64,000 nucleotides of DNA, from contig JBBTTA010000002.1 of NCBI GenBank assembly GCA_038064475.1, positions 83,195 to 147,194 on the forward strand. The letters run 5' to 3'. The notes below the pieces were generated by a model. It worked only from the letters and a program-made list of their open reading frames with translations. It searched no databases and was not told the origin of the DNA. Positions 9,095 to 63,230 of the stretch are shown piece by piece (within the stretch, counting starts at the first letter, position 1; each line of letters starts with the position of its first letter). The DNA comes from Patescibacteria group bacterium (lineage in GTDB: Bacteria > Patescibacteriota > Minisyncoccia > Phycocordibacterales > EsbW-18). Made by a program: the position numbers and the translations under genes.

Positions 9095-9174
9095 GGGTCG
9101 CGTATCATCCTCATATGCTGACGTAAGAGTGAAGACCCTCTTTCCTCAGCGGCACTCCAAGCATATACCCCTCG

Positions 9175-9230
9175 CGCTCCCATTTTCGTCTTCTCGAGCC
9201 GGAAAATAAGCAAGCTTCCTTCCATCTCTC
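9175..9230 (+). repeat. tRNA-upstream repeat, diverged copy C
   Basis: gctcccattttcgtcttctcgagccggaaaataagcaagcttcc resembles copies A and B. Precedes tRNA-Met. Confidence 0.4.
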
Positions 9231-9271
9231 TAAAACGAAAACCGCGCTCGAGGTGCATGCAATACTCGTTT

Positions 9272-9345
9272 GCTGACGTAGCTCAGTTGGTTAGAGCGAG
9301 GGACTCATAAGCCCTAGGTCGCTGGTTCGATTCCAGCCGTCAGCA
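9272..9345 (+). tRNA. tRNA-Met (anticodon CAU; elongator Met or Ile2-lysidine type)
   Basis: gctgacg/cgtcagc acceptor with a G1-C72 pair. Loop CUCAUAA. T-arm gctggttcgattccagc. Confidence 0.8.
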
Positions 9346-10312: not shown

Positions 10313-11374
10313 TTATTCTTCCACTTGTGGCTTCTCAATCGAAAGTATTTCAATACCTCCTGTTTCTCCAGCAATACGAACAACGTCTTTGTCTATTTTT
10401 CCGAGTTCTTTATGAGCGGTATTGAAATGATTGACTGTTGTCCCAAGTGCGTTACCGAGTTTCAGCATAAATGCATTGTGATTAGCTATGTGACGACCAA
10501 GTTCCCCAACACGCTTCTGAATTTCTTTTGCTTGTTCCTCAATCTGTAGTCCACGGAGTCCCTGGAGCACCGTCTGGAGGTACGCAACAAATGTTGTTGG
10601 AGAAACAATAATAACTTTGTATTCTTTGTACGCTCGTTGGATAAGATTCGACTCTCCGTCGTCACCTCCCACAACACCAACTTTATTTGACAGTAAGTCG
10701 TAGTAAATACTTTCTGATGGAATAAACATGAACGCAAAGTCCATTGTATTTTCCGCAGGACGAATATACTTACTCGTTTCCTTAATACGCAGTTTTAAGT
10801 CATTAACAAATGCTTTCTCAAGTCGTATCTTTTCTTCTGCATCGCGCGATTCAATGAGCCGGCGATAATTTTCGAGAGAAAATTTTGAGTCAATAGGCAA
10901 AACTTTTTTGTCTCGGAGAAAGATTACCGCATCAACAATCTCACCGTTCTGGAAAGGATATTGCAGAACATACTGATCTGGCGCGAATATGTCTTGCAGA
11001 ACCTTTTCAAGATAATATTCACCAAGCGCCCCACGTTGCTTTGAATTTTGGAGAATATCTTGAAGACTTTGGAGTTGGTCAGCGAATGACACCACCTGTT
11101 TGTTTGTCTCATCAAGCTTTGTAAGACCTTCCGTCACCTCTTTTACAATGCGTGTCGATTCACCAAGCTGTGCGCGTATTGATTCATGCATCGTCTTCGC
11201 ATTCTCGCCCAACTTCATATCAACCGTGCGTGAAAGCTCATTAATTTGTTGCAATACGAGATCGAGTCCCTGCGATGGTTTCGTCTCTTCCTGTTTTTTG
11301 CGAAGGAAAAACCACACAACGCCTGCATTGAGCAAAACGATAAGTATCGCAAAAACGAGTGTCTCGGTATTCAT
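10313..11374 (-). CDS. rmuC: DNA recombination protein RmuC
   Basis: N-terminal TM, long coiled coil, and a conserved C-terminal RmuC core (FMFIPSESIYYDLL...VSPTTFVAYLQTV). Start taken at MNTETL, because the track start overlaps the next gene. Confidence 0.75.
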   Translation of the reverse strand: MNTETLVFAILIVLLNAGVVWFFLRKKQEETKPSQGLDLVLQQINELSRTVDMKLGENAKTMHESIRAQLGESTRIVKEVTEGLTKLDETNKQVVSFADQLQSLQDILQNSKQRGALGEYYLEKVLQDIFAPDQYVLQYPFQNGEIVDAVIFLRDKKVLPIDSKFSLENYRRLIESRDAEEKIRLEKAFVNDLKLRIKETSKYIRPAENTMDFAFMFIPSESIYYDLLSNKVGVVGGDDGESNLIQRAYKEYKVIIVSPTTFVAYLQTVLQGLRGLQIEEQAKEIQKRVGELGRHIANHNAFMLKLGNALGTTVNHFNTAHKELGKIDKDVVRIAGETGGIEILSIEKPQVEE

Positions 11375-11445
11375 TAAAGCGATTATACCACGTGCCTCCG
11401 AGGTCCCTTGTGGTATCATACGAAGACTTATAAACACAAATATAT

Positions 11446-11901
11446 ATGTCACTGCATCAGAACATCAAAGAAAGTATCAAAGACGCCATGCGAGCAAAGG
11501 ACCAGACAAAGCTCATGGTTTTGCGAGCACTTTCAGCAGCATTTACGAACGAAGTGGTTGCTCTCAAGCGAAAGCCTGATGATGAGGTTACTGACGAGGA
11601 GGCACTCGTTGTCATCATGCGCGAAGCAAAGAAGCGTAAGGACGCCATTGAACAGTTTACTGCCGGAGGTCGCCCAGAATTAGCCGCGAACGAACAAGCA
11701 GAACTAGCTATTATTGAGACGTACCTTCCTGCTCAAATGAGCCGAGAAGAGATTGAGGCCGCAGTGATTGCAAAGAAAGAGGCTATGGGAATTACAGACG
11801 CATCACAGAAAGGACAATTCATTGGCGCTGTCATGAAAGATCTCAAAGGAAAAGCTGACGGAAAGATTGTTCAGGAAATTGTTGAAAGTCTTTTAAAATA
11901 A
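11446..11901 (+). CDS. GatB/YqeY-domain protein
   Basis: 151 aa. YqeY-like motifs (VLRALSAAFTNEVV, ETYLP). Terminator at 11917-11950. Confidence 0.75.
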   Translation: MSLHQNIKESIKDAMRAKDQTKLMVLRALSAAFTNEVVALKRKPDDEVTDEEALVVIMREAKKRKDAIEQFTAGGRPELAANEQAELAIIETYLPAQMSREEIEAAVIAKKEAMGITDASQKGQFIGAVMKDLKGKADGKIVQEIVESLLK

Positions 11902-12358
11902 ACAGGAGAAATAAAAAACCCCCCGCCGTACACACGGCGGGGTGTTTTTGTTAGCAAGGACTGCCTTCGCTCGTAATACAACCTGAGTACGATTCAATCA
12001 GCGTAGCCTCTTGTGACATTTGCTGTGTGCGAACATATTCCCCCACAACAAGCACAAGAAAGCTTGCAAGAAGTACAACAAGAAAAGAAACTGTGTTCCG
12101 GAAGAACGTCCGGTTAAAGAGCTCGCGCGCAGGCATATATGAACATGATACACGCAGCACTACATGCGTAGCAAGAAGCTCTAGTACAAGGTTTAACCTT
12201 GTACTTTTGAAGCAACACCTCTATAAACAGAGGCGTCGCTTCGCTCAGACAAATCCTGCTTCGCACAAGGCTACGCAGGACAAACAAAAACCGCCCCCAA
12301 GGGGGCGGTTTTTGCGAATTGACTCTATACGAGTAGTCGTATCCGAAACTAACTAATG

Positions 12359-14263
12359 TTAGTTGAGGACGTTGACTGCGTTCGTACGGTAGTCTGATTC
12401 AGGAAGTGCTGCTTGTGCAGTAGCTGCAGTATCAGCAATTCCTTCGAGACGGAAGTACACGTTCTGGAGAAGCACCTTGTATGACAATGGTGCGTTGCTA
12501 CCAGGGATGACGTCAACCGTAAGTGTGAACGTTTCTGTATCACCCTCACGAACCACCCATGCGCTGTCGTCTTCGTCAGCTGTCGAGTCGAGGTTTGCTG
12601 TCGTTGATGCTGCCGCAACAGTAACAATATCATTGTCGCCGTTGAGGAAGTCGAATGAGACACCCTCGCTTACCCAGCTTGTTGTTGAAGCAACTGCACC
12701 AAATGGGATGTAGAAGTCATCACCAAATGCTGTAACTTCGAACTCAAGCGTGTATGTTGCTTGGTCGTTGTCGTTGCCCTCAACTACTTCACCTGATGCG
12801 CTCATGTCGCCAGCTGCAAGTGAGACACCGTCCGTGCGGAGCGTGTGTGCATCACCTGTTGCTGAACCCTTGAGCTGTGAAGCTATGAGATCGTCAGCAC
12901 CTTCAGCTTCTATTTCGTCAACATCGTCTGATGTTACAGAGGCTGTAACTGTCATACCTGGGTTTCCACCAGTAAGTGCGTTGAATTCGAGTTGGAGTGA
13001 GACTTCAACTTCCTCACCATCTTCAACAACGAGTTCTTCGTTGTCAAAGTCGAATGTCAAACCACCGTCCAATGTTGTTGACGCTGTTAAGTCATCAAAT
13101 TCTTCGCCGTCGATAACGAGCATTGCGTCGTTAACGATTGCTGCGTATGTTGATGAAGAAACAATTACACGAAGTGGGAGTTCTGAGACTTCGATGTCGT
13201 TGTCCTCTGCTGCAAGAGTGAAGACAAGAACTTCCATCCAATCAGAAACTTCGTCATCTTCGAGTTCGAGTACAGTTGCGTCAGGGTTGTTGTCTGACTC
13301 AGAAACTGTGAGCTCTTCTCCTTCACCTGCAACGTCGATGTCGAATTCAACTTCGTCAGATGCGCCTGAGAGTGCGTCTGCATCACCGATAGTGTGGTCA
13401 ATACCCTCACCGTCGAGTGCGCGAACACCTTCTTCAGGTACCCAGACTGTCCATGCGACATCGCTATCGACGTCATCAATGTTGTTCTGAGTTCCAACCA
13501 TCACCGTAAATTCTGGTGATGAGTCTTCATCTACGACTGAGTCAACGTTCGTGAAGCGAATACGATATTCATCGTCTTCGTCCTCATCCCAGTTGTCTTC
13601 GTCGCTACCGTCAGCTGAGCCGACTTCGTCGCCGTCGAGCAAGAGAGTAATCTCATCGAATACTTCCCAAGGCTCTGTGTCGCCGTCAGCACCTGTTGAC
13701 TTGAACATAACGTCAACACGTTCAACTTCAGCGTCTGCTTCGTCAACGTCGAATTCGAAGTCCATGACTTCTGCTTCGCCGCCTTCTTCAACGTCAGAGT
13801 CATTGCCGCTTGAGCCTTCAAAGTTGTTGAGGTCTGACTCACCGCCTGAGACTGTGTCGCTGTCGCTGTCGCTGTCGTCATCAGTTGATGTTGTACACAT
13901 GCTGTTGTACTTAGCGCGTGAAATTGCGCCGAAGTAACCTGTTGCAGGTGCTACACCGTTAGCTGACTGCCATGCTGCGACTGATGCCTGTGTAATAGAT
14001 CCAAAGTAACCTGTTGCTGCGACCGAGAAGAATCCCTCCGCTGCAAGGAAATTTTGGAGTTCTGTAACGTCTGCACCCGATGCACCTACAGTGAGGTCAC
14101 GAGTGAATGCGAAACAGCTTGCTGATGAACCCCCGCTCAAGCCCTGGAGCTGTGCGAGAAGCGCATCAATTTCTGCCTGGAGATCCTCTACTGTTGCTGC
14201 GTGTGCTGGTGCAGACGCAACGAGAGCAAGAGCAACTGCCAAGCCGAGAATCAATTTTTTCAT
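12359..14263 (-). CDS. Secreted protein with an N-terminal peptidoglycan-binding-like domain and a very long acidic (D/E/S/T-rich) region
   Basis: Signal peptide MKKLILGLAVALALVASAPAHA. Motif GASGADVTELQNFLAAEGF...GYFGSITQASVAAWQ (PG_binding_1-like). Start chosen at MKK (14263). Terminator aaccgcccccaagggggcggttt at 12290-12316. Confidence 0.55.
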   Translation of the reverse strand: MKKLILGLAVALALVASAPAHAATVEDLQAEIDALLAQLQGLSGGSSASCFAFTRDLTVGASGADVTELQNFLAAEGFFSVAATGYFGSITQASVAAWQSANGVAPATGYFGAISRAKYNSMCTTSTDDDSDSDSDTVSGGESDLNNFEGSSGNDSDVEEGGEAEVMDFEFDVDEADAEVERVDVMFKSTGADGDTEPWEVFDEITLLLDGDEVGSADGSDEDNWDEDEDDEYRIRFTNVDSVVDEDSSPEFTVMVGTQNNIDDVDSDVAWTVWVPEEGVRALDGEGIDHTIGDADALSGASDEVEFDIDVAGEGEELTVSESDNNPDATVLELEDDEVSDWMEVLVFTLAAEDNDIEVSELPLRVIVSSSTYAAIVNDAMLVIDGEEFDDLTASTTLDGGLTFDFDNEELVVEDGEEVEVSLQLEFNALTGGNPGMTVTASVTSDDVDEIEAEGADDLIASQLKGSATGDAHTLRTDGVSLAAGDMSASGEVVEGNDNDQATYTLEFEVTAFGDDFYIPFGAVASTTSWVSEGVSFDFLNGDNDIVTVAAASTTANLDSTADEDDSAWVVREGDTETFTLTVDVIPGSNAPLSYKVLLQNVYFRLEGIADTAATAQAALPESDYRTNAVNVLN

Positions 14264-22971: not shown

Positions 22972-23020
22972 GTTTGGGAAGCTTATAGCTGATAGCTTGT
23001 AGCTTGTAGAAAATACAAAA

Positions 23021-30038: not shown

Positions 30039-32090
30039 TCACGAGATAAGGGCCTTAAACTGCTCTTCTGTGATGACTTTTACACCAAGTTTCTCCGCTT
30101 CATCGAGTTTTGTGCCTGCTTCAACACCTGCCAAAACATAGTCTGTTTTTTTGGAGACTGAGCTTGAAATACTGCCCCCATGTACTCGAATAAGTTCTTT
30201 TGCTTCATCACGAGAAAGTGTTGGAAGTGTTCCCGTCAAAACAAATGTTTTGCCCGTTAATTTTGTAATTTGTAATTTGTAATTTGTAATTTCAACACGC
30301 ACGTGTTGTAGAAGATGTTCAAGAGGTTTTTTATTATCAGGATTTCGGAACCAATCGTAGACAGACTGTGCAACAACAACGCCTACTCCTTCAATTGCGG
30401 TAAGTTCGGGGAGTGTTGAATCACGAAGTTTTTGCAACGTTCCAAAATGATTTGCAATATCAATTGCCGTTTCTTCTCCAACATGTTGAATTGAAAGCCC
30501 AATCAAAAGTCGCGCGAATGGAACACGTTTTGCTTTCTCAATGGACGCAACAAGGTTGTCCGCTGATTTTTCAGCAAATCGTGGCAGTGAAAGCAAGTCG
30601 CCTTTCGTTATCGTAAAAATATCGGCAAACTCTGACACCAACCCCGCGTCTAAAAACATTTTTACCTGTTCTTTACCCAAGCCATCAATATCAAATGCGT
30701 GTTTTCCCACAAAATGTTCAAACACTCGTTCTGTTTGTGGACGTGAACCTTTGAACCTACATCGATACGCCGCCTCCCCTGGTACACGCTCGATTGAACC
30801 ATCTCCTCCACACAAAGCACATGTTGTTGGAAACTTCCAAATTTTTTCTTTCCCTGTGCGAAGATTTGTCAAAACAGAAACAACTTCAGGAATAACATCC
30901 CCCGCACGCTGTAATACCACGGTGTCTCCAATACGAAGATCCAATTCTTTTATAAAGTCTTCGTTATGGAGTGTTGCGCGGGACACCATTGCTCCACCGA
31001 CAAATACTGGCTTCAGGTGCGCGACAGGAGTCAAAACCCCTGTACGGCCAACCTGAAGCGCAATATCCTCAATGACTGTCGCTACTTGCTCTGCGGGAAA
31101 CTTATACGCAACGCCAAAGCGGGGCGCTTTGGCTGTATGTCCCAACATCTTTTGATGATCACGTCGCTCTACTTTGAGCACAATACCGTCAATATGATAT
31201 GGCATGTCGTGGCGTTTTTTCAGTGTCTCTGTATAAAACTTTTCAATATCTTCAACGGATTTACCAAGTTTAAATACAGGGTTCACATTAAAACCGAGCT
31301 CTTTGAGTTTCTTCAACTCTCCTGTTTGTGTATCTGGAATATCATCCGAAATTTGTTCAATATCGTATGCAAAGTTTTCAAGCTTTCGTGAAGCAGTTAT
31401 TGATGCATCAAGTTGTCGCAAGGATCCCGCAGCCGCATTTCGTGTGTTTGCAAAAAGTTGTTCATCGTTTTTTGCGCGCTCACGGTTTATACGTGCAAGT
31501 TCGGTATCAGAGAGCCAAATTTCACCAATAGCAATTACATCAATAAGTTTTGAAAGTGTGTGAGGAATGTTTTTAATCGTTTTTACTGTATGCGTCACAT
31601 CTTCTCCAATATCCCCATTACCACGCGTTGCTGCGAGTGTTAGCTTTCCCTTTTTGTACGTGAGTATTGCTTTGAGTCCATCAATTTTGTACTCCATGCA
31701 GTACGCAACGTCTGATGCTTTGCCACCTTCTTTTTCAACACCCTTTCGCACGCGCTCATCCCATGCGCGCAATTCTTCCGATGTAAAAACGTTATCAAAG
31801 GAATACTGCCGCACAGCGTGTTGCACTTTTGAGAATGCTTCAGACACATCAGCACCAATACTCTCGCTTGGAGTATCGTATGCTTTTAATTCAGGATACT
31901 TGTATTCAATTACCTGAAGTTCTTTGACAAGACTGTCATACACCTCATCAGATATCTCTGGCGCATCATGGGTATGGTAAAGATCCCGATGGTGCTTTAC
32001 CTCGGCAAGGAGCGTTTCGTAGCGTGTTTGTAGAGATTTTGGTGCCATATCTTCTACAGTGTAGCAGAAATGCCAAATATCAAATTTCAA
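30039..32090 (-). CDS. ligA: NAD-dependent DNA ligase
   Basis: KxDG adenylation motif (KIDGLK), OB and Zn-finger domains, HhH, BRCT. Contains an in-frame heptamer tandem repeat at 30247-30282. Confidence 0.9.
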   Translation of the reverse strand: MKFDIWHFCYTVEDMAPKSLQTRYETLLAEVKHHRDLYHTHDAPEISDEVYDSLVKELQVIEYKYPELKAYDTPSESIGADVSEAFSKVQHAVRQYSFDNVFTSEELRAWDERVRKGVEKEGGKASDVAYCMEYKIDGLKAILTYKKGKLTLAATRGNGDIGEDVTHTVKTIKNIPHTLSKLIDVIAIGEIWLSDTELARINRERAKNDEQLFANTRNAAAGSLRQLDASITASRKLENFAYDIEQISDDIPDTQTGELKKLKELGFNVNPVFKLGKSVEDIEKFYTETLKKRHDMPYHIDGIVLKVERRDHQKMLGHTAKAPRFGVAYKFPAEQVATVIEDIALQVGRTGVLTPVAHLKPVFVGGAMVSRATLHNEDFIKELDLRIGDTVVLQRAGDVIPEVVSVLTNLRTGKEKIWKFPTTCALCGGDGSIERVPGEAAYRCRFKGSRPQTERVFEHFVGKHAFDIDGLGKEQVKMFLDAGLVSEFADIFTITKGDLLSLPRFAEKSADNLVASIEKAKRVPFARLLIGLSIQHVGEETAIDIANHFGTLQKLRDSTLPELTAIEGVGVVVAQSVYDWFRNPDNKKPLEHLLQHVRVEITNYKLQITKLTGKTFVLTGTLPTLSRDEAKELIRVHGGSISSSVSKKTDYVLAGVEAGTKLDEAEKLGVKVITEEQFKALIS

Positions 32091-32160: not shown

Positions 32161-33402
32161 TTAGTATTCCGCACGCAATGCACGCTCAAGACGTCGGTTG
32201 CTTGATATCTCACAAGTGTTGTAGCCACGGGCAACAATTGTTGTTGACGAAGTGTTCTTTGTCACCGTTACTAGTGCACAACGGCCGTCTTCAAGTGAAA
32301 GGTCAAATGTAGTTGTTGCCGATTCTCCACTCGATTCAGACACCCATGCAAGCGGATTACCATTAGAATCTTCATACCAGCCTGTTTCTGGATCTGAAAT
32401 GTCAGCTTCTGCACAGAGAATATTGCTCATTTCTGCAACGGGTGGCACAAAAATATTATTCGCGTCTCCCGCAACGATTGCATCAATTTCCTCATCTGAA
32501 AGTGCGCGGTTGTAAATACGAAGATCATCAAGCGTACCTGAATACCACCCAGCGTTGCCACCGTTTTGTCCTATAAACTGTACACTAAAGTCCCCCCCAC
32601 TAGTTCCAAGAGAAGTGGGAGCCCCACCATTCACCTGAACCTGTAGACTATTATCTGCCTTTCGGATAACAACAAAATGTGTCCATCCTGAAAAAGATGC
32701 TGGCATATCGGCTTCATGATTCTGCGCGTCGATACGCAAGCGATATTTGTTTTGAGTAGTAAAGACAAAAGAAAATCGATCCGAGGCTCCTGACTTTGCA
32801 ACTATCGTACGTCCTCCTCCAGTTTGCGTCGGAAGCTGTGGCTGTGCCCAAAAAGAAACAGTGAACTCCCCTGCATATGACGTTTCTTCTTCTAACCCCA
32901 CATAATCGCCCGCTCCATCGAAGGAAAGTGCGTCATTGATATATCCGGGAATCCTGTTTGGACCGTCAGAACCGTTAATACCGAGAATAAGCCCGTCATT
33001 ATTTCCCGATCCTGTATCAAACACATCATCACCAGATCCTTCATCCATACGCCAATAGTTTACGATGCCCGACGCAAGAGAGTCCCCGTAAAAACCGAAT
33101 GCAGGCGATAGACCGTCATATTGCAAATCCCAATAGAGTGCACATTCAAGCGCGGTGTCCGCAGCATAAAATGCATTTTGTGATTCGCGCGCATCTGAAG
33201 TAAGAATAAGTTCCTTAAGCGTAATGTTGTAGACAGCAAGACCAAGCGCGAGCAAAAGTGACGTCACCAAGACAGCGTAGAAAAGCGTAAAACCACGCGA
33301 CACGCGAAGCGCGCGTCGCGTGAAATAACAAATAACAGAAAACAGGCAACAAAAACGTTGTGTTTTGTTTTCTGTTTTCTGTTTTCTGTTTTCTGTTGTC
33401 AT
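32161..33402 (-). CDS. Minor pilin-like protein with a LamG (concanavalin-like) domain; long leader ending SRG|FTLF
   Basis: GFTL plus a hydrophobic helix. LDDLRIYNRALSDEEI matches LamG. Start chosen at MTTENRKQK; the track ORF extends to 33429. Confidence 0.5.
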   Translation of the reverse strand: MTTENRKQKTENKTQRFCCLFSVICYFTRRALRVSRGFTLFYAVLVTSLLLALGLAVYNITLKELILTSDARESQNAFYAADTALECALYWDLQYDGLSPAFGFYGDSLASGIVNYWRMDEGSGDDVFDTGSGNNDGLILGINGSDGPNRIPGYINDALSFDGAGDYVGLEEETSYAGEFTVSFWAQPQLPTQTGGGRTIVAKSGASDRFSFVFTTQNKYRLRIDAQNHEADMPASFSGWTHFVVIRKADNSLQVQVNGGAPTSLGTSGGDFSVQFIGQNGGNAGWYSGTLDDLRIYNRALSDEEIDAIVAGDANNIFVPPVAEMSNILCAEADISDPETGWYEDSNGNPLAWVSESSGESATTTFDLSLEDGRCALVTVTKNTSSTTIVARGYNTCEISSNRRLERALRAEY

Positions 33403-33403
33403 G

Positions 33404-33985
33404 CTATTCCCAATTATAGATAAACTCATTCATCGTCACGTTGCGTTGTGCAATTCCTTCATACCATTCGACTCGCGTTGTTACTTTTATTTCTTTATCA
33501 GTGCGCACATTCTCAATCCATGTTGTGCGACGAAATGCTGAATCAACTCCTTCCCCGTATCCATACACGTATGTTGTTGTGTTATACGTCATAATCGGAC
33601 ACTGATCTAGACAATCTCTTACCTCTGACGTAGAGATATCGATATAACATCCATCTTCTACTTGGCAATCCTCAAGTGTCGTAAGCCAGTCATTTCCTGT
33701 CAATGCGTTGGTGTCGCGTGTCGCGCGAATAAATTCGATCGTTTCTTGTGCAAGATAAATTGCAGTCACTTGATTGCGTGCAACGCGCGATGCGGCAAGA
33801 CTTTGATACACAAGAGACAATGGGGCGGTCACCGCCAACAAAAGTACGGCGATTGCCACCAATGTTTCAACGAAAGTAAAACCCCGAATCATGAAGCGAG
33901 AATCATGAATCATGCCAAAAAAGTTTCCGTTATCTTGATTCTTGATTCTTGATTCTTGATTCATAATTGTATTGTGTGATTTCAC
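33404..33985 (-). CDS. Type IV (pseudo)pilin-like protein; prepilin site G|FTFVETL; long leader MNQESRIKNQD..FFGMIHDSRFMIRG
   Basis: Class III signal motif with E5. Start uncertain: GTG at 33985, ATG M8, or ATG M25. Confidence 0.55.
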   Translation of the reverse strand: MKSHNTIMNQESRIKNQDNGNFFGMIHDSRFMIRGFTFVETLVAIAVLLLAVTAPLSLVYQSLAASRVARNQVTAIYLAQETIEFIRATRDTNALTGNDWLTTLEDCQVEDGCYIDISTSEVRDCLDQCPIMTYNTTTYVYGYGEGVDSAFRRTTWIENVRTDKEIKVTTRVEWYEGIAQRNVTMNEFIYNWE

Positions 33986-34611
33986 TATCGATCAAGGAGC
34001 CTTTGTGTAATAAGCGTCTGGAGACTAAATACGGTACGTGTCTTGCCCTCCGGTCCTGCAAATCCCTGAAAAACCAAAAGAACGCGAGGCTGTTCGTTGT
34101 CCGTTGAACGCTCTCCTCTAACATAAAACTTCAATACTTCGATATCAACCTCAGGCGCCGTGAGAGCTAGATAGTTAATACCCCCATCGGTTGACCGCTC
34201 AAGACTCATGTCCGTTTTGTTAAACCGATAGTGAATCTCTTCTCCATCAGTTGAAAGGAAGTTAAACTCTTCCGTGCCTTGATCGGGGTCACACGACGAA
34301 ACCCCACAGTCGTACGCAGTCCCCACGCGAATGGCGCGCGTCATACTATCAAGCGCGAAGTTGAGATTGTTCATAACCGATTTCACGCTCTGTGCCTTTC
34401 GGTTTGCCTCAACAATTGAAACAAGAGCCCCTGTCGCAATAAGCATCACAATAGAAAAAATAAACACAGAAACAATCATCTCAACAAGCGTGAACCCGCG
34501 CGACGCGCCGCTTGCGCGACGCGCAGAAAAACAGAGAACAGAGAACAGAGAACAGATCGTTTCATGTGTGTTTTTTGTTTTCTGTTTTTTGTTTTCTGTT
34601 TTCTGATTCAT
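33985..34611 (-). CDS. Type IV (pseudo)pilin-like protein; prepilin site SRG|FTLVEM; 39-aa Cys-containing leader
   Basis: Only one in-frame ATG. Leader MNQKTENKKQKTKNTHETICSLFSVLCFSARRASGASRG. Confidence 0.55.
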   Translation of the reverse strand: MNQKTENKKQKTKNTHETICSLFSVLCFSARRASGASRGFTLVEMIVSVFIFSIVMLIATGALVSIVEANRKAQSVKSVMNNLNFALDSMTRAIRVGTAYDCGVSSCDPDQGTEEFNFLSTDGEEIHYRFNKTDMSLERSTDGGINYLALTAPEVDIEVLKFYVRGERSTDNEQPRVLLVFQGFAGPEGKTRTVFSLQTLITQRLLDR

Positions 34612-34614
34612 ACA

Positions 34615-35226
34615 TTATTCTTTTACCTCTTCAAGTTCATGCCGTATTGAAAACTGCCCTGTGGATTCGATGAACACATAGCGTTGGCCTCCGCGTACTG
34701 ACACAATACCAACAGCGGCGCGTCCTATGGTACCGCGTTCAATAATAGCGTCGGGTTCAGGGCGCTCGAATACTATCGTCAACTCATCAAGATCACACCC
34801 GGTTCCTTCGAGATCACAAATCGGTTGAATAATTGCACCACGACCGAGTGTGTATGTCTCAAGGAGCTCGTTTGCGTCATAAAAGCCGTCGTTGTCCCTG
34901 TCGATAAAGAACTTATATGTTGTCGTACCGTTTTCAAAAAAGATGCCGTACGGATCATCGAACCCTCCTTGATCTGTGCGTACGTTTATTCCATAGCTTT
35001 GTGCTTTACGAACCGACAATGCAACATCGTATGCCATATTCGTAAGAAGTACTTCATCATCAAACTTTGAGTTTCGCGTGATGATGACTGAAGAAATGAG
35101 AGCAAAAATAGCAACTGTCACGAGCATTTCAATGAGCGTGAAGCCGTGAATCATGAAGCAAGAATCATGAATCATGCTAAAAAACCTTTTCTGGTCCTGA
35201 TTCTTGATTCTTGATTCTTGATTCAT
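34615..35226 (-). CDS. Type IV (pseudo)pilin-like protein; prepilin site HG|FTLIEM; leader MNQESRIKNQDQKRFFSMIHDSCFMIHG
   Basis: Start chosen at MNQ (35226), 2 nt after the pilD stop. The track ORF extends to 35322. Confidence 0.55.
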   Translation of the reverse strand: MNQESRIKNQDQKRFFSMIHDSCFMIHGFTLIEMLVTVAIFALISSVIITRNSKFDDEVLLTNMAYDVALSVRKAQSYGINVRTDQGGFDDPYGIFFENGTTTYKFFIDRDNDGFYDANELLETYTLGRGAIIQPICDLEGTGCDLDELTIVFERPEPDAIIERGTIGRAAVGIVSVRGGQRYVFIESTGQFSIRHELEEVKE

Positions 35227-35227
35227 A

Positions 35228-36031
35228 TTAGGAGATGTATCCGATGAGCGTGAGAATATCAATTGATCCGAAGAGGACAATAAGCAATCCGAGAATAAGA
35301 AACGGAGCGAAAGGAACCTCACTCTTCATTGTAAGCCCCGAGCTGCCCCACCGCAAACGAGTTTTCGACAGAATAATGAGAGCAAGGCTCACTAATGCAC
35401 CTGACCAAAACGCCCAAATAAGCGCGGAGATCGAACCAAGAATCCCGAGCATAAAACCAATACCAAGGGACAATTTTGCATCACCAAAACCCATCCACCG
35501 CCCGCCTGAGACAAACCACAAGAATGCAAACGGAAATGCTGCAATTAATCCTGAAACAAAAGGATACCACCATGGAGCATACGGAATGATTGCGTACGGC
35601 ATAAATCCGTATGATAGTGCGAGCGCAGCAAATGTATACACAAGGCTGTCCGGAATGATGGTGTGGCGAATGTCGTAGACGGTGATTACAACAAGAATAC
35701 TCATAATAAATGCAAGATGAAGTGCGTGGAGTGGGATGAGAATTCCTGCCGAGAATGCTTTAGAGAGAGCGAGTGTGAAAAGAATACCGGTGAGTATTTC
35801 AACAATCGGATACTGCCATGAAATGTGCGCACAACATGCACGACAGCGGCCGCGCTGAAAGAGAAAGCTAAAAAGTGGAATAAGTTCAAACCACCGCAAT
35901 ACGTGTCTGCACGAACCGCATGATGATCGCCCCCCCAGACCACGCCCTGTACGAAAACGAAGTACGACCACGTTAAGAAAACTACCAATGAGAAGTCCGA
36001 AAAGAAAAGCGAAAATAAGAAACAACGACAT
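35228..36031 (-). CDS. pilD: Prepilin peptidase (A24 family)
   Basis: N-terminal CxxC...CxxC zinc-binding motifs. Multi-TM. ...DIRHTIIPD... aspartyl protease region. Confidence 0.8.
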   Translation of the reverse strand: MSLFLIFAFLFGLLIGSFLNVVVLRFRTGRGLGGRSSCGSCRHVLRWFELIPLFSFLFQRGRCRACCAHISWQYPIVEILTGILFTLALSKAFSAGILIPLHALHLAFIMSILVVITVYDIRHTIIPDSLVYTFAALALSYGFMPYAIIPYAPWWYPFVSGLIAAFPFAFLWFVSGGRWMGFGDAKLSLGIGFMLGILGSISALIWAFWSGALVSLALIILSKTRLRWGSSGLTMKSEVPFAPFLILGLLIVLFGSIDILTLIGYIS

Positions 36032-36190
36032 ATATACAGTATACCCAGCACTTACAATCTAAAACAGGGATATCTCGGAACATCGAACATGTTTTTATCC
36101 ATCTTTTTGAAAGAAACTTTTAGTAAGTGCCGGGTATACAGGAAAACAAAAAACCCCTTTCGGGGTTTTTGTTTTGTGTGCGAAGGAGAG

Positions 36191-36640
36191 TTATGGTCGT
36201 ACGCAGTAAAATGGAGATGTTGTGTCCTGACAATCAATTCCAAGTGCGTCTGCATCATCAACATCACCATCTAAGACCGTGTTTTGTGTATCTTCAAGTT
36301 GTGCGCGAAGTACATATGTTGTTGCCGTTCCCGAATACATATATATCCCTGCGGCAGTTGGGTCTATAGGAATTGCTTGCATAAACCCACTTGTGACAAG
36401 TGCCGCACCTGCGACTGATGTTGAAGCGAGTGTGCCTGCCGCCTCTACTGGATACGTACGATTCGAGTCGAAGTACAGCTCAAGTGCAAGTTTCACCTGA
36501 CCCATATCAGAAACACGTTTCGCATCACGGCCCTTCAAACGTGCGCTGTTGAGTGACGCCAACACAACTGATGAGAGAATACCGATGATGGCGATAACCA
36601 CCAAGAGTTCAATCAATGTAAAACCTTTTTGTTGTTTCAT
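36191..36640 (-). CDS. pilA: Type IV major pilin
   Basis: MKQQKG|FTLIELLVVIAIIGIL canonical class III signal. C-terminal Cys pair. Confidence 0.85.
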   Translation of the reverse strand: MKQQKGFTLIELLVVIAIIGILSSVVLASLNSARLKGRDAKRVSDMGQVKLALELYFDSNRTYPVEAAGTLASTSVAGAALVTSGFMQAIPIDPTAAGIYMYSGTATTYVLRAQLEDTQNTVLDGDVDDADALGIDCQDTTSPFYCVRP

Positions 36641-36657
36641 ATCTTGTAATTAATATA

Positions 36658-37092
36658 CTACGGTCGCACGCAGTAGTACGCTATCGGTGTGTCAGAACAA
36701 TCGGTGTTTGCAGTACCGTTTGATGTTCCATCAATGTCTCCCACCAATGTGACGTGGTTTGCGTCTTCAAGTGCTGCACGGAGAACGTATGATGTGGCAT
36801 TGCTTGCAGCTGCCGAGTAGAGGTATTGTTCACCACTTACTGGTGGAACGGGAAGCGCCGGCATGTAGCCTCCTGTTACCAACGAGCTTGATGCTGCTGG
36901 GTATGCGCGGTTTGAGTCGAAGTAGAGTTCAAAAGCAACGCGCATTTGGCCGAGGTCAGAAACACGCTTTGCATCACGGCCCTTCTGACGTGCGCTGTTA
37001 AGAGATGCCAACACAACTGATGAGAGAATACCGATGATGGCGATAACCACCAAGAGTTCAATCAATGTAAAACCTTTATTTTTTCCTTTCAT
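36658..37092 (-). CDS. pilA: Type IV major pilin (paralog)
   Basis: MKGKNKG|FTLIELLVVIAIIGIL. C-terminal CSDTPIAYYC. Confidence 0.85.
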   Translation of the reverse strand: MKGKNKGFTLIELLVVIAIIGILSSVVLASLNSARQKGRDAKRVSDLGQMRVAFELYFDSNRAYPAASSSLVTGGYMPALPVPPVSGEQYLYSAAASNATSYVLRAALEDANHVTLVGDIDGTSNGTANTDCSDTPIAYYCVRP

Positions 37093-37342: not shown

Positions 37343-37385
37343 ATACGCGCCTTTTGTACGATATATCGTACAAAAGGCGCTCTTG
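37343..37385. terminator. Perfect palindrome gcgccttttgtacgatatatcgtacaaaaggcgc downstream of pilC
   Basis: 17-bp arms. Separates pilC from the pilin promoter region. Confidence 0.5.
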
Positions 37386-37416
37386 ATTCTTGATTCCAGC
37401 TTCTTGATTCTAGCTT

Positions 37417-46459: not shown

Positions 46460-46483
46460 AATATAGCAAAAGAGAACACCGGC

Positions 46484-46517
46484 ATTCGATATATCGAATG
46501 CCGGTGTTCTTGCTTCT
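46484..46517. terminator. Terminator hairpin aacaccggcattcgatatatcgaatgccggtgtt; a second palindrome follows at 46548-46590
   Basis: Perfect inverted repeats after tyrS. Followed by ttgattcgtgacc (46586-46598) and cagaaaa-type heptamer repeats. Confidence 0.6.
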
Positions 46518-46668
46518 TGAGGTGTGTATAAAAAAATCCCCTCCCGACACATTCTATCGTTCTATAGAACGATAGAATGTGTCGGTATTCTTGATTCGTG
46601 ACCTGCCTGACGAACAGGTGGGTCCTTACTTCTGTTTTCTATTTTCTGTTTTCTGTTCTCTCAATTTC

Positions 46669-52554: not shown

Positions 52555-52608
52555 GAAGTAAGAAGGTAGATAGTAGAGAATAGAAAATAAAAAACAGAAA
52601 ACAGAGGA

Positions 52609-55600
52609 CTAAAGAAGTTTGAAAGTGAGTGGCTCACTTCCTGCATCGCCAACAGCGATGGTCATATCAGAAAGGTTTGTTGCTGCACAAATCTGATCTT
52701 TGTATTCTTCTGCAAGTGCAGTTGTTTCTTGTATTGCTGTCATGACTACATGCACCTTGTCTGATGGTGTGAGATTTGTTGTCTTTCGAAAGTCTTGAAG
52801 TGCTCGGATAAGGTCACGGAGGTCTCCCTCTTTCTTAAGCCCAGGTGTTATGTGTGTATCAAGTTCAACTTCCCAACCTGTACCGTCAGTAAATGCAATT
52901 TCTTTTACGTTTACTTCGTCTTTAATGATATTGAGGATGTCATCTATCTTTCTGATTTCTGATTTTGGATTGCGAATAGTGAGTCTCTGTAATGGCTGAC
53001 GAATCTTTACGCCTGCATTCATACGCGCTTCAAGTGCAAGAGAGACCGTACGGCGTGCTTCTGCCATGTGTTCAAGAAGATCCGCATCAACCTTCTTTGC
53101 TTCCGGCCACGCTTCAAGATGCACACTTTCAAGCGGTCCGTGCATATTTTCGTACAGTTCTTCAGCAAAGAATGGCGTCATTGGTGCCATGAGTTTTGAA
53201 AGCTCGAGAACTACGTATCGTGTTGTCGAGAGCGCAAAGAGTTTGTCTTCACCCTCATCTTTGAAGCGATCCCGGGATCGTCGGACGTACCATGTTGAAA
53301 GATCATTAATGAAGTCGCGGATATCGCGAGCAGGCTCATATGTTCGATAGTTTTCGAAATGCTCCGTCGTTGATGTTATAAGTTCGTTTAAACGCGCGAG
53401 AATCCACTTGTCCAATACATTTTTGCTTTTCTCATGACTTATGACTTGTGACTCATGACTTGCATCATGTGCATACAACTGATAAAACTTCACGACGTTG
53501 CGAAGAACGGTAAATACTTTCTTCACACCTTCATCAACAGTACGCTCATCGAAATTCTTTGAGTCCCCTGGCTGGTTCACCGCAAACATCCAAAAACGCA
53601 ACGCATCGACACCATATTTTGAAATCATCTCCCATGGATTCACCACATTACCTAGTGATTTCGACATTTTTTTACCTTCTGCATCGAGGATGTGCGTCAA
53701 ACAAATGACGTTCTCAAATGCCCGACCACGGCCCATCAACACACCAACGGCGTGCAAGGTGTAGAACCAGCCGCGTGTTTGATCGATTCCTTCGCAAATA
53801 TAGTCTGCGGGATAGCCTTCTTTCTCAACCCATTTTTTGTTTTCAAATGGATAGTGATCTTGTGCGAACGGCATCGAACCAGAGTCGAGCCATGCGTCCA
53901 ATACTTCAGGTGTACGCTTCATATACATAGAACATTTTGGACAGCCGACAACATACTCGTCGATGTATGGCTTGTGGAGGTCGAGTTCAAATTTCTCATT
54001 GTGCGGCAGAGGAATAAATGGAAGTTCGTGCACCTCGGCTGTTTCTTTAAACATTTTTATGTCTTTCACAATCGTCGTTGCTGTCGCCTGTTCTGATGCA
54101 GCAAAAAGCATTTGTGCGGGTGCGCCGTGCGTCACGATGAGAATATTCTTACCATCGTACATATCTTCAGTTTCGTAGAGAAATTCCGTCACACGACGTT
54201 TAATGTCTTCGTGACTCTCCCCTCCTTCTGGACGCTTGGTGAACCAGTCACCGTCAGTGAAAAACATCGCGAGTTCGTGGAATGTCCTGCCATCAAGTTT
54301 TCCGAGTTTTAATTCACCTAAACGATCATCAAAAATAATCTGGTCTTCTTTGAGTCCATGTTCTTGTGCAATGATTTCCGCAGTTTCTGTCGTGCGTCCG
54401 TATGGTGATGCAAGGATAAGATCAATTTTTTCAATTTTTTTCGCAGCATGTACGACTTGCCTCTTCCCTTCCTCAGTCAACACATCAAATTTACTTCCTT
54501 TTTTTGATGAAGCGATGTTCTCGGCATTTGAAAGTGCTTCGCCATGACGCATGACGGTGTACGCATTTGTTGTGCCTTGTGCGAGTGCTGTCAAATCTGC
54601 AATAGAACCAACAACTTCACGATGCTTGCAGTGCTCACACGTCCAGACCGGCAAGGGTGTTCCCCAATAGCGATCACGTGACACCGCCCAATCTTTTACT
54701 TCACGAAGCCATTCTCCAAAACGTCCACCACGAATGTGTTCGGGTACCCAATTGATTTTCTCGTTTTCTTTGACGAGTGTGTCACGCAACTGTGACATAC
54801 CGATGTACCACGACGTACGTGCATAATAAATAAGTGGTGTTTTACAGCGCCAACAGAATGGATATGTGTGTGCGTGGCTCTCTTTTTTGAAGAAAAAGCC
54901 TTTATCCTGAAGGTATTTAAGGACAACAATAGCTGTTGCCAAACCATTATCTTCTTTATCTTTAACGGGCAGACCTTCAAGCTCTCCCGTGCCCTTGATA
55001 AAATGTCCTGTCTCGTCGACAAGATGCACTTTTGGCAAACCAATCTCCGTTCCCAGCACAAAGTCGTCCTGACCGTACATAACTGCAGTGTGTACGATTC
55101 CTGTTCCATCTGTCGTTGTGACAAAATCTGCTGCATATACTTTGTATGCTTTTTCGAGTTTTGGTTTTTCAGAGTCAGGGGCAATGTTATTTAAATATGG
55201 GAACAGTGGCTCATACGAAAGTCCGACGAGCTCTTTTCCTTTAATCGTGCGTCGTGTAGTCTGACCCTCGACCACACTCTTAGACACGTTATCTGCATAC
55301 TGTGACAAAATCTTGTCTCGAAGATCTCTTGCGAAAATAATAGTTTCTTTCAAATGTCGCTCTGTTTCAGGTGCGGAATCTACTTTTTGAGAAAGTTCCT
55401 CGATGTCATATTCGATATCTTCCCCAACAGCGAGCGCAACATTACCAGGAAGTGTCCATGGAGTAGTAGTCCAAGCTAAAAAATACACATTTTCTGCGTC
55501 CTGTCCGCATAGTTTCCGCGTTGATTCCGCATCTAATTTAAACTTCACATAGACCGAAAGATCTTTGATGTCTTGATATCCTTGCGCAATCTCATGACTC

Positions 55601-56190
55601 GAAAGCGCTGTCCCACAACGAGGACACCACGGCAATACTTTGTAGTCTTGGTACAAAAGTTTTTGCCTATCGACTTCTTTGATGACGTTCCAAACTGATT
55701 CAATATATGACGGATAGTATGTCACGTATGCGTCATCGAGATTAACCCAATACCCCATACGTTCCGTAAACGCACGCCACTCATTCATGTACTTCCACAC
55801 ACTCTCTTTACACTTCTCATTGAACGCAGCAATACCGTACTCTTCAATTTCTTTTTTCGATTTCAAACCAAGTATCTTTTCAGTTTCAATTTCTACGGGT
55901 AATCCGTGTGTGTCCCAACCCCCTTTGCGACGCACGTGAAAACCGCGCATTGTTTTATATCGCGGAATAACGTCTTTGAATGCACGAGAAATGAGGTGGT
56001 GAATCCCCGGACGACCGTTTGCTGTAGGTGGCCCTTCGTAAAAAATGAATTCTCCTTCTGGTGACTTCTTCGCGAGCGTTTTCGCGAAGATGTTGCGCTC
56101 ACGCCACTTTTGAAGCTGCGCATCTTCTTTTTGAGCATTTTCACCCGGATTGTACTCGCTCTCAAATGCCATAATACGCCAGTATAGCAC
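52609..56190 (-). CDS. ileS: Isoleucyl-tRNA synthetase (type 2) with an inserted PGAM-like histidine-phosphatase domain
   Basis: HIGH-like GIHHL and KMSKS. Editing domain. Insertion at about aa 541-715 (nt ~54046-54570) with RHGE...LIVTHG motifs. 1193 aa. Confidence 0.85.
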   Translation of the reverse strand: MLYWRIMAFESEYNPGENAQKEDAQLQKWRERNIFAKTLAKKSPEGEFIFYEGPPTANGRPGIHHLISRAFKDVIPRYKTMRGFHVRRKGGWDTHGLPVEIETEKILGLKSKKEIEEYGIAAFNEKCKESVWKYMNEWRAFTERMGYWVNLDDAYVTYYPSYIESVWNVIKEVDRQKLLYQDYKVLPWCPRCGTALSSHEIAQGYQDIKDLSVYVKFKLDAESTRKLCGQDAENVYFLAWTTTPWTLPGNVALAVGEDIEYDIEELSQKVDSAPETERHLKETIIFARDLRDKILSQYADNVSKSVVEGQTTRRTIKGKELVGLSYEPLFPYLNNIAPDSEKPKLEKAYKVYAADFVTTTDGTGIVHTAVMYGQDDFVLGTEIGLPKVHLVDETGHFIKGTGELEGLPVKDKEDNGLATAIVVLKYLQDKGFFFKKESHAHTYPFCWRCKTPLIYYARTSWYIGMSQLRDTLVKENEKINWVPEHIRGGRFGEWLREVKDWAVSRDRYWGTPLPVWTCEHCKHREVVGSIADLTALAQGTTNAYTVMRHGEALSNAENIASSKKGSKFDVLTEEGKRQVVHAAKKIEKIDLILASPYGRTTETAEIIAQEHGLKEDQIIFDDRLGELKLGKLDGRTFHELAMFFTDGDWFTKRPEGGESHEDIKRRVTEFLYETEDMYDGKNILIVTHGAPAQMLFAASEQATATTIVKDIKMFKETAEVHELPFIPLPHNEKFELDLHKPYIDEYVVGCPKCSMYMKRTPEVLDAWLDSGSMPFAQDHYPFENKKWVEKEGYPADYICEGIDQTRGWFYTLHAVGVLMGRGRAFENVICLTHILDAEGKKMSKSLGNVVNPWEMISKYGVDALRFWMFAVNQPGDSKNFDERTVDEGVKKVFTVLRNVVKFYQLYAHDASHESQVISHEKSKNVLDKWILARLNELITSTTEHFENYRTYEPARDIRDFINDLSTWYVRRSRDRFKDEGEDKLFALSTTRYVVLELSKLMAPMTPFFAEELYENMHGPLESVHLEAWPEAKKVDADLLEHMAEARRTVSLALEARMNAGVKIRQPLQRLTIRNPKSEIRKIDDILNIIKDEVNVKEIAFTDGTGWEVELDTHITPGLKKEGDLRDLIRALQDFRKTTNLTPSDKVHVVMTAIQETTALAEEYKDQICAATNLSDMTIAVGDAGSEPLTFKLL

Positions 56191-62473: not shown

Positions 62474-62532
62474 GGAGTATACGGATTCCAGATAAAATAT
62501 ATTTAAACTTGGAGGCTAAGCCTCCAAGTCGA

Positions 62533-63120: not shown

Positions 63121-63230
63121 ATCTTCTGGGCGCCCTTGGAGGCTAAGCCTCCAAGTGGCTGGCCGACATCCGATGTCGGCCAGCGTATTAATCAGCTTGA
63201 TAATCAGCTTGATCTAATCAGCTCACTCAA

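Follow-up and report, generated by a model that had tools for sequence, protein, structure and literature searches.

Heptanucleotide-repeat hairpins within the long predicted leaders of four minor pilin genes of an uncultivated groundwater Paceibacteria population

A 64,000-nt stretch of DNA from a Patescibacteria bacterium (assembly GCA_038064475.1, contig JBBTTA010000002.1, positions 83,195 to 147,194; hereafter the window) encodes a type IV pilus (T4P) gene cluster with four minor pilin genes, here named g1 to g4. In each of these genes the segment between an upstream ATG and the prepilin cleavage site is occupied by a module of 7-nt repeats followed by its imperfect inverse complement. The most economical reading, to which we assign a probability of about one half, is that these modules are passengers, tolerated in a cleavable leader and purged of in-frame stop codons. 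The source population belongs to the Paceibacteria (Patescibacteria, candidate phyla radiation), is uncultivated and originates from groundwater of the Hainich H41 well.

Four minor pilins with long predicted leaders

A first-pass annotation, made from the sequence alone, had recognised four pilin-like open reading frames (ORFs) with class III cleavage motifs, three of them with a glutamate at position +5. All four are found on the minus strand and are supported by profile searches (the arrow marks the predicted cleavage site):

35228-36031, minus strand: pilD, prepilin peptidase (PF06750 and PF01478); TAA stop codon 1 nt before the g1 ATG
34615-35226 (ATG 35226; maximal ORF 34615-35322), minus strand: g1, GspH/FimU-like minor pilin, 203 aa; PF07963 25.9 bits and TIGR02532 29.5 bits, aa 27-48; cleavage G28↓FTLIEM
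33985-34611 (ATG 34611), minus strand: g2, GspJ/PilW-like minor pilin, 208 aa; PF07963 32.8 bits, aa 37-59; TIGR02532 28.2 bits; cleavage G39↓FTLVEM
33404-33964 (ATG 33964; maximal ORF 33404-33985), minus strand: g3, GspI/PilV-like minor pilin, 186 aa; Tt1218-like; cleavage G28↓FTFVET
32161-33402 (ATG 33402; maximal ORF 32161-33429), minus strand: g4, PilX/GspK-like minor pilin with a ConA-like lectin domain, 413 aa; PilX_N 26.7 bits (cut-off 25.5), aa 36-86; Laminin_G_3 68.6 bits; cleavage G37↓FTLFYA

In all four, Gly(-1) and Phe(+1) are followed by about 20 hydrophobic residues (G↓FTLIEMLVTVAIFAL, G↓FTLVEMIVSVFIFSI, G↓FTFVETLVAIAVLLL and G↓FTLFYAVLVTSLLLA). The support for g3 is marginal with TIGR02532 (16.7 bits, cut-off 16.3), and its scores with PF07963 (19.1 bits, cut-off 21.2) and the PilV profile TIGR02523 (31.6 bits) are below the cut-offs. 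Glu at +5 is present in g1, g2 and g3, whereas g4 and its orthologues have Tyr5; g4 fits PilX_N instead. A prepilin peptidase and the T4P assembly genes are encoded together with g1 to g4, as expected for class III pilins, and the four genes are the usual type IV minor pilin core set (GspH/J/I/K-like). They are bona fide type IV minor pilins, and depart from the type in a single respect, the lack of a short hydrophilic leader.

The profile searches placed the onset of the prepilin motif at residues 27-38, away from the N-terminus. Counted from the upstream ATGs, the leaders are 28 (g1), 39 (g2), 28 (g3) and 37 aa (g4), which agrees with the first-pass remark that they are far longer than usual. 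Documented leaders are hydrophilic and 6-26 (to about 30) aa long, those of type IVa pilins below 10 and up to 18 aa (PMC4471445). The leaders of g2 and g4 also contain a hydrophobic, Cys-rich stretch. A short leader is obtained only from proximal in-frame starts, which read MIHG in g1, MIRG in g3 and MSRG in g4 (with a GTG at -4). In g1 an ATG in the hairpin loop (35175) would give an 11-aa leader, MIHDSCFMIHG↓F, and a further ATG lies at -4 (35154); the gene caller chose MIHG (179 aa). No such choice exists in g2, where ATG 34611 is, as already noticed in the first pass, the only canonical start: neither ATG, GTG nor TTG occurs between it and the cleavage site, and the loop ATG at 34565 is out of frame. 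For g1 and g3, the 28-aa form and the 11-aa form starting at the loop ATG would fit the sequence equally well. The earlier statement that the ORFs are separated by gaps of 3 nt or less holds for the maximal, GTG-started ORFs only; from the preceding stop codon to the in-frame ATG of the MNQ and MTT starts, the distances are 1 (g1), 3 (g2), 20 (g3) and 1 nt (g4).

Hairpin modules made of heptamer arrays

The first-pass annotation attributed the leaders to 7-nt tandem repeats, and Tandem Repeats Finder (TRF) indeed detected such arrays in all four (TCTTGAT x4.3, TGATTCT x3.9, TGTTTTC x4.6 and x5.3, AACAGAG x3.9). It overlooked their key feature, the hairpin inside each leader. Each leader consists of a purine-rich heptamer array and then an imperfect inverse complement, the arms being 27-30 nt long and 83-89% complementary. 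Minimum free energies (MFE), with z-scores against dinucleotide shuffles, are included in the following list.

35143-35226, minus strand: g1 leader module, type A, 28 codons; left arm GAATCAA x4 (35198-35224), right arm TGATTCA-type x4 (35147-35174); inverted repeat 28 nt, 89%; MFE -32.8, z -4.7
34495-34611, minus strand: g2 leader module, type B, 39 codons; A-rich CAGAAAA/CAAAAAA array (34570-34608), TGTTCTC x3 arm (34524-34556); inverted repeat 27 nt, 85%; MFE -47.8, z -4.7
34495-34526, minus strand: g2 GC-rich mini-hairpin, its 3' end being the Gly(-1) codon
33881-33964, minus strand: g3 leader module, type A copy; left arm 33933-33962, right arm 33885-33912, both TRF arrays; MFE -33.1, z -3.7
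33292-33402, minus strand: g4 leader module, type B, 37 codons; CAGAAAA x4.6 array (33362-33399), U-rich arm (33323-33350); MFE -57.3, z -7.3
33293-33323, minus strand: g4 GC mini-hairpin; 3' arm reaching the Gly(-1) codon; a 21-nt insertion relative to the related loci L011 and L012
32069-32146, minus strand: untranslated heptamer-arm hairpin between the g4 stop and the start of ligA (ATG 32048); CAAATAT-type units, arms 30 nt, 83%; MFE -38, z -6.1

The listed ligA ORF start, TTG 32090, falls within the last of these hairpins and is probably spurious.

The window holds two copies of type A and two of type B. Between g1 and g3 the arms are identical at 56 of 57 positions, the loop at about 52% and the adjacent codons of the mature pilin at about 59%; the module shared by g2 and g4 is more diverged. 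The A-rich arms read K, N, Q, T, E and R, and the U-rich arms F, C, S, L, V and I, hence the Cys-containing hydrophobic stretch. Since the arms give these residue classes in all three phases, the leader peptide is a read-out of the repeats. What had been described as two conserved types of leader peptide is better understood at the DNA level, as modules of array plus inverse array that were copied between paralogues.

Period 7 is the only enriched period, beyond chance. Seven strong arrays in the window have this period, and every other period within 4-11 has none; in 1.42 Mb of related Paceibacteria loci there are 29 strong arrays of period 7 and 1-10 of each other period. Heptanucleotides are also, according to Mrazek 2007 as summarised in PMC4679880, the commonest class of long simple sequence repeats (SSRs) in prokaryotes.

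A number of known element types were considered for the hairpins. An Rfam search (gathering threshold and E<=1) returned tRNAs and sub-threshold look-alikes of generic miRNA precursors only, and no known RNA family. The G-U content, with 2-3 G-U pairs and similar energies for the sense and antisense strands, was uninformative as to whether the hairpin acts as RNA or DNA. Intrinsic terminators were rejected, as all four hairpins lack a T-tail; the sole canonical terminator (36149-36170) lies between pilin and pilD. Consensus matches for internal promoters were at chance level (11, 9.1 expected). Integron attC-like cassette boundaries did not fit, with gene order kept in L011, L012, L042 and L091 and the GTTRRRY core absent. 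A HutP-like (NAG-N4)3 periodicity fits CAGAAAA, UAGAAUA and CUACAAG and misfits CATCTCT, AATTTTC and ATTACAA. The A_AAA_AAC in g2 resembles a -1 frameshift site, but has no downstream-only stimulatory structure at the right distance. A GANTC/CcrM link was likewise dropped, the GANTC site being present in every GAATCAA unit and absent from the other units; CIR elements are among those listed in the review PMC10969869.

The long leaders are probably translated

The suggestion of the first-pass annotation that the long forms may be genuine is strengthened by several observations; they are probably translated. Besides the single start of g2, frame 0 is the sole frame that is open from the upstream ATG to Gly(-1) through all four modules. 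The type A right arm contains four TGAnnnn units with frame offsets of 1, 2, 0 and 1, and the TGA has been lost in the offset-0 unit alone (TGC in g1, CGC in g3). Intergenic GAATCAA hairpins of other bacteria, in contrast, have kept perfect (TGATTCA)n arms with stops in all three frames.

The open frame extends to the clade. The pilin frame has no stop in the 90 nt before Gly(-1) in 38% of 240 minor pilins, drawn from about 80 genomes, compared with 6-8% for the other two frames (p ~7e-24) and 15% for the pilin frame of major pilins. Heptamer-coded leaders without any alternative start occur in L042, L091, L095, L011, L012 and L103. In L042 all four genes read MN(R/Q)INPTSYKLQATHSSRG↓FT, the leaders of L095 and L091 are built on CTACAAG, CTATAAG and CATCTCT arrays, and that of L103 reads MMNQESRIKNKRG↓FTL. 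The obligatory leaders of these relatives are 19-29 aa or more, the g4 leader in L011/L012 being 29 aa.

Shine-Dalgarno (SD) motifs are rare, found in 7 of 36 inspected window genes. A TATACT-like box precedes the ATG of many genes by 8-12 nt, which suggests that leaderless or near-leaderless mRNAs are widespread in this genome. Because the genome is SD-poor, an ATG abutting the previous stop is a natural site of re-initiation. The proximal ATG/GTG codons of g1, g3 and g4 are buried in stems and lack an SD motif. Translation of the long leaders is therefore reasonably supported; in g1, g3 and g4 it would begin at the upstream ATG, and PilD would have to cleave leaders of this length. Tryptic peptides that the long leaders would yield are NQDQK and FFSMIHDSCFMIHGFTLIEM..., and MNQKTENK... 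and ASGASR.

Leaders vary among orthologues but not among assemblies

Conservation of the leaders in orthologous clusters, which the first-pass annotation took as a touchstone, was not found; they are hypervariable and without common sequence. Annotated leader lengths in 112 homologues of g2 span 4-98 aa, with a median of 15.5 and with 25 aa or more in 34 of them. The closest homologues, at 70-76% identity, have leaders of 9-21 aa, so that the 39-aa leader in the window is recent.

The window, L011 and L012 all have a strong g4 hairpin, at a protein identity between the window and L011 of only 39%. The 3' arm is homologous and the partner arm differs. In L011 (12530-12675) and L012 (12505-12650) a stem of about 24 bp is formed by a G-rich heptamer spacer and a leader-coding C/U-rich array (z -5.4 and -5.1), and encloses an A-rich loop of 55-65 nt holding the sole start codon, whereas in the window the 3' arm pairs with the A-rich array that follows the ATG. 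The 5' regions of the closest relatives, L095, L091 and L042, are not significantly structured (z +1.1, -0.8 and +0.6), so the hairpin is not required for expression of minor pilins. A homologous purine-rich array precedes the ATG in L095.

Within the population, the variable copy number proposed in the first pass was not seen in 8 independent assemblies, although consensus sequences cannot show minority alleles. Repeat copy number is identical in all assemblies covering each gene (8 for g1, 5 for g2, 4 for g3 and 1 for g4), and over 20.8 kb L001 shows 1 single nucleotide polymorphism relative to the window and is free of indels. Four low-coverage contigs end inside modules. Among orthologues, arrays of 3 and of 4 units occur.

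Heptamer arrays elsewhere in the genome and in other bacteria

Similar arrays are found in other unconstrained sequence, housekeeping contexts included. In ligA, ATTACAA x4.4 (30260-30292, minus strand) is read in frame as EITNYKLQITK in the linker between the HhH and BRCT domains; as unrelated linkers of homologues have the same length, this array arose in place and not by insertion. The 49-nt spacer between metG and tatD is filled by a CTACAAG/CTATCAG/CTATAAG array (22980-23009, minus strand) ending 10 nt before the tatD ATG, and the same CTACAAG-type unit encodes 'SYKLQA' pilin leaders in L042, L095, L091, L054 and L070. Inside pilD, AATTTTC x3-4 arrays occur at the same relative position, about 240-285 nt from the start, in L029 (9717-9748), L048 (10240-10270) and L074 (10285-10306). 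A convergent spacer after the stop of an isoleucyl-tRNA synthetase gene is also filled by a heptamer array (52574-52605). The synthetase itself (52609-56190, minus strand, 1193 aa) is interrupted at aa 546-702 by a histidine-phosphatase (His_Phos_1) domain that separates its catalytic domain into two halves.

Two further window arrays have no complementary partner. The first, of GAATCAA type (37381-37416), directly follows the pilC stop and is succeeded by a perfect 17+17-nt palindrome (37347-37380; the whole at 37347-37416, minus strand). The second, of CAGAAAA type (46630-46661), lies just past the stop of a DUF1761 gene and adjoins two loop-less perfect palindromes between convergent genes (46473-46510 and 46544-46585; the whole at 46473-46661). 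In addition, a 21-nt perfect palindrome, CTTGGAGGCT(T/A)AGCCTCCAAG, is present in four copies arranged as two pairs (62454-62528 and 63025-63155).

A search with an exact 20-mer of the GAATCAA array matched at least 120 metagenome contigs, whose GC content spans 27-71%; the modal array length is 3.9 units. In 33 of the 120 contigs a complementary array lies no more than 150 nt away, compared with 2 of 189 controls. The array is not specific to pilins; a class III site follows in only 2 of the 120 matches. Intergenic GAATCAA x4/(TGATTCA)n hairpins with variable loops occur in high-GC bacteria (L107, L115/L212, L116, L184, L196, L207, L211 and L216; GC 0.62-0.68), where these AT-rich elements are compositional outliers with a GANTC site in each unit. 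In L213 (about 9100-9300, reverse) a GAATCAA x4/TGATTC hairpin forms an exact 29-codon insert in a LepA-like GTPase, in a variable loop before the DTPGH motif. Its flanks share one frame, yet an in-frame TGA is retained; the gene could be a pseudogene, contain a recoded stop or have acquired the insertion recently. Another heptamer, the plant-type telomere unit (CCCTAAA) x8, was noted at L045 15836-15893 in the middle of a 34-kb Taylorbacteria contig.

Palindromic inserts at the cleavage site of distant relatives

In 17 of 239 minor pilins, the Gly(-1)/Phe(+1) codons mark the end of the 3' arm of a strong stem; the corresponding numbers are 4 of 956 for control offsets and 1 of 130 for major pilins. 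About half of these 3' arms carry a GTG or ATG at -3/-4. Several distant Paceibacteria show the pattern M-K-G-F-T-[palindrome]-G↓F-T-L, with inserts of 37-99 nt and GGGTTTAC at both ends (L089 at 10900-13010, L051, L038, L074, L016, L070, L045 and protein P0059). The duplication of GGGTTTAC is clean in L089 and L051. All four minor pilins of L089 carry a copy of one and the same palindrome, and P0059 has two palindromic inserts in tandem, giving a 98-aa leader. Within their loci such inserts are restricted to pilin leaders. The pattern resembles site-specific insertion of a palindrome family, with target duplication at the codons of the prepilin cleavage site.

In the window, the GC mini-hairpin is flanked by duplicated F-T codons, which read TTCACG...TTTACG in g4. 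No such duplication was found around the heptamer hairpins, and neither a transposase nor clear terminal inverted repeats or target site duplications could be defined for the window modules. Inserts have thus landed or accumulated repeatedly in the part of minor pilin genes that encodes the leader.

Origin and possible role of the modules

According to the passenger reading, pilD and g1 to g4 would be transcribed together, and each cistron would be started by termination-reinitiation at the ATG abutting the previous stop. Translation would then cross the 84-117-nt module to the canonical Gly↓Phe site, where PilD would remove a leader of 28-39 aa. The module would be low-complexity DNA, not an invention at the peptide level, and of a kind that takes up unconstrained sequence all over this genome and is also present in many other bacteria. 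Because PilD cleaves the leader off, any in-frame sequence without stops would do no harm there, which is true of no other part of a pilin, and passengers would be tolerated. They would accumulate, lose their in-frame stops and be copied or homogenised among paralogues (type A in g1 and g3, type B in g4 and g2), a process probably seeded by the conserved codons of the N-terminal helix; a short GC palindrome would have been inserted at the F-T codons of g2 and g4. A by-product may be that a stem starting at the ATG blocks free entry of the 30S subunit, so that a cistron would be translated only by ribosomes coming from the preceding one. A functional role of the hairpins, in enforced coupling or RNase III processing, is plausible.

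Several observations weigh against this reading. Arms that are 98% identical while the loop has drifted to about 52% would not be expected of a purely neutral passenger, and the g4 hairpin kept in three genomes at 39% protein identity hints at selection on structure. Minor pilin leaders hold 11 of the 29 period-7 arrays in the 1.42 Mb, an enrichment above what tolerance alone obviously predicts. Known leaders are hydrophilic, whereas these hold an 11-residue hydrophobic, Cys-rich stretch. Furthermore, g1, g3 and g4 possess proximal in-frame starts, the left-arm array of the window is homologous to an untranslated spacer array in L042, and the case for translation and PilD cleavage of 28-39-aa leaders is drawn from DNA sequence.

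Part of this evidence would be accommodated if selection acted on the hairpins as regulatory structures of the polycistronic mRNA, with the long leader as no more than their coding shadow, an explanation we regard as less likely, although it is the strongest of the alternatives. By occluding the start, a hairpin would permit translation only after termination of the previous cistron and so may set a 1:1:1:1 stoichiometry of the tip complex; or hairpins may be RNase III sites that set expression and possibly expose the -3/-4 AUG/GUG in the 3' arm as a leaderless start. This is consistent with the onset of the stems 1-2 nt past ATGs that lie 1-3 nt past the previous stop, with the preserved arms and drifting loop of g1 and g3, and with the persistence of the g4 hairpin in L011 and L012, where the ATG is in the loop. 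In many lineages the 3' arms stop exactly at the Gly(-1)/Phe(+1) codons, and about half of them have a GTG/ATG at -3/-4; this and an SD-poor genome with leaderless-type promoters point the same way, and there is a precedent in the HMW1A adhesin gene, where a heptamer array is the left arm of an RNase III-processed hairpin (PMC12721329). The heptamer leaders of L095, L091 and L042, which are not significantly structured, show, however, that the hairpin is dispensable for minor pilin expression, and g2 has no proximal start to expose. With few G-U pairs, similar strand energies and no Rfam match there is no RNA-specific signal, and since palindromes are self-complementary by origin, covariation of arms between genomes does not prove selection.

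In a more speculative proposal, which we consider doubtful, the leader-coding segment of minor pilins is a dedicated niche for hairpin elements in SD-less Patescibacteria. The stems, both heptamer-array hairpins and palindromes duplicating the GGN-TTY-ACN codons of the cleavage site, would be kept for ribosome hand-over or RNase III cleavage and would thereby fix the stoichiometry of a four-subunit tip, at the cost of a 30-100-aa junk leader removed by the prepilin peptidase.

It is unlikely that the modules are instead untranslated intercistronic elements, with the real starts at MIHG↓F, MIRG↓F and MSRG↓F or at the loop ATG (MIHDSCFMIHG↓F) and with g2 using a non-canonical start or being defective. 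The proximal in-frame ATG/GTG codons, the choice of MIHG by the gene caller, and the homologous arrays that are untranslated in L042 and precede the ATG in L095 speak for it, as do arrays just upstream of starts, at tatD and in the case of TAACTGA repeats (PMC4679880). Yet g2 offers no alternative ATG, GTG or TTG before the cleavage site once 34611 is passed, and this reading gives no reason why TGA was lost in frame 0 alone upstream of the -4 ATG. All four modules are opened by an in-frame ATG beside the previous stop, the proximal starts are stem-buried without SD, and the pilin frame upstream of Gly(-1) is open across the clade. The first-pass annotation had offered a control element in the 5' untranslated region (5'-UTR), of variable copy number, as its alternative. 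The copy-number part finds no support, while the remainder may hold for g1 and g3, which have a loop ATG and a -4 ATG; the homologous array is untranslated in L042.

Phase-variable contingency loci, in which 7-nt slippage would switch minor pilins on and off or change the in-frame ATG, are very unlikely. Units of 7 nt in the 5' coding region of surface proteins, the 3 and 4 units among orthologues, the four contigs ending within modules, and a loop ATG in g2 that one extra TGTTCTC unit would bring into frame are compatible with the idea. Against it stand the identical copy number in all independent assemblies (8 for g1, 5 for g2, 4 for g3), the absence of indels over the 20.8 kb of L001, and tracts of 3-4.6 (up to 5.3) units where at least 11 are needed in hmw (PMC12721329). 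The same arrays, moreover, occur in housekeeping contexts, and the contig breaks are equally explained by duplicated modules.

A function of the leader peptides as protein, for example as a cytoplasmic chaperone or targeting segment, as a regulator of the order of PilD processing or through Cys-mediated interactions, is highly improbable. In its favour, each leader type is common to a gene pair, long in-frame extensions are common in the clade, and an upstream pseudo-site keeps G-F-T despite synonymous change in some distant relatives (GGC TTC ACC vs GGG TTT AC, L074). Against it, the similarity is fully explained by DNA repeats read in all three phases, orthologous leaders of 4-98 aa share no sequence, the loops as the only non-repeat part diverge fastest, and repeats of the same kind encode the ligA linker and untranslated spacers.

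Gene neighbourhood

The T4P cluster is on the minus strand in the order pilM/(N)/O, pilB, pilT, pilC, two major pilins, pilD, g1-g4, ligA, gatC and gatA. An identical PilD is encoded by one ENA contig and nine further contigs from other samples; the nearest species representatives are only about 50% identical in PilD. The two major pilin genes share a 170-nt N-terminal segment (36459-36628 and 36908-37077) that is 86% identical, a paralogous duplication, and have short leaders of 6-7 aa (MKQQKG↓ and MKGKNKG↓).

Relation to known systems

In the 5'-UTR of Haemophilus influenzae hmw1A/hmw2A (Rapun-Araiz et al. 2025, PMC12721329) a 7-nt repeat likewise makes up the left arm of a long, imperfect hairpin that precedes the mature part of an adhesin, and expression depends on the hairpin structure via RNase III (PMC12721329). 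The hmw repeat, however, is untranslated, present in at least 11 copies, phase-variable and paired with a G-rich non-repeat arm (PMC12721329). The window modules have 3-4.6 copies, heptamer arrays in both arms, a location inside an ORF whose product would later be cleaved, and no observed copy-number variation.

The TAACTGA repeats of Beggiatoaceae, Cyanobacteria and Bacteroidetes (MacGregor 2015, PMC4679880) are also short arrays (2-6 copies) at the 5' ends of SD-less genes, occasionally inside ORFs, with one unit found across distant phyla. There, TAACTGA dominates, and the repeats are direct, without a hairpin partner and upstream of the ATG (PMC4679880), whereas the window has several units (GAATCAA, CAGAAAA, TGTTCTC and CTACAAG) in inverted pairs, downstream of the ATG in the pilins. 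An array upstream of the start is absent from the four pilins and present at tatD, in L042 and in L095.

Class III leaders of 15-30 aa, cleaved after Gly by a PilD/TadV-type peptidase, are known from type IVb prepilins and Flp pilins (Berry & Pelicic 2015, PMC4471445). The genes studied here are type IVa-like, in a PilB/T/C/M/O system whose major pilins have leaders of 6-7 aa. Their own leaders extend beyond 6-26 (about 30) aa, contain hydrophobic portions and show no conservation between orthologues.

Rickettsia palindromic elements (RPEs) and intragenic miniature inverted-repeat transposable elements (PMC10969869) are palindromes translated in frame, tolerated and present in several copies per genome. 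RPEs are about 150 bp long, encode a conserved peptide and stay in the mature protein (PMC10969869), unlike the inserts described here, which are 21-100 nt, consist of simple repeats or short GC palindromes and lie in a segment removed by a peptidase. In-frame insertions relative to orthologues lacking them are seen here as well, in the 21-nt mini-hairpin of g4 and the 29-codon LepA insert of L213.

In the opa genes of Neisseria, CTCTT repeats in the region coding for a Sec-type signal peptide (7-28 units) are phase-variable and form no hairpin. They have in common with the present modules that a non-triplet repeat in a cleaved N-terminal region changes the frame but not the mature sequence. 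In tract length and observed variation the modules do not qualify as contingency loci.

A literature search on heptanucleotide repeats or long prepilin leaders in Patescibacteria found none. The SSR hairpins and in-frame palindromic passengers are of known kinds, here housed in a cleavable prepilin leader.

Implications

If the long forms are made, class III leaders would well exceed the textbook 6-26 aa, with 28-39 aa here and as many as 98 aa in orthologues, and would include hydrophobic stretches. This would bear on substrate recognition by PilD and on the annotation of Patescibacteria pilins, for which gene callers choose inconsistent starts. A segment destined for proteolytic removal would be a safe harbour for repeats and palindromes, in which selection is seen only as the purging of stops. 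The hairpins at the stop/start junctions are a testable candidate for enforced coupling in ultra-small, SD-poor bacteria, and if the proposal of a dedicated niche were true, they would represent regulatory RNA embedded in, and enabled by, a cleavable signal sequence. Finally, the AT-rich GAATCAA-array hairpin in unrelated high-GC bacteria may indicate a widespread, undescribed class of small repeats.

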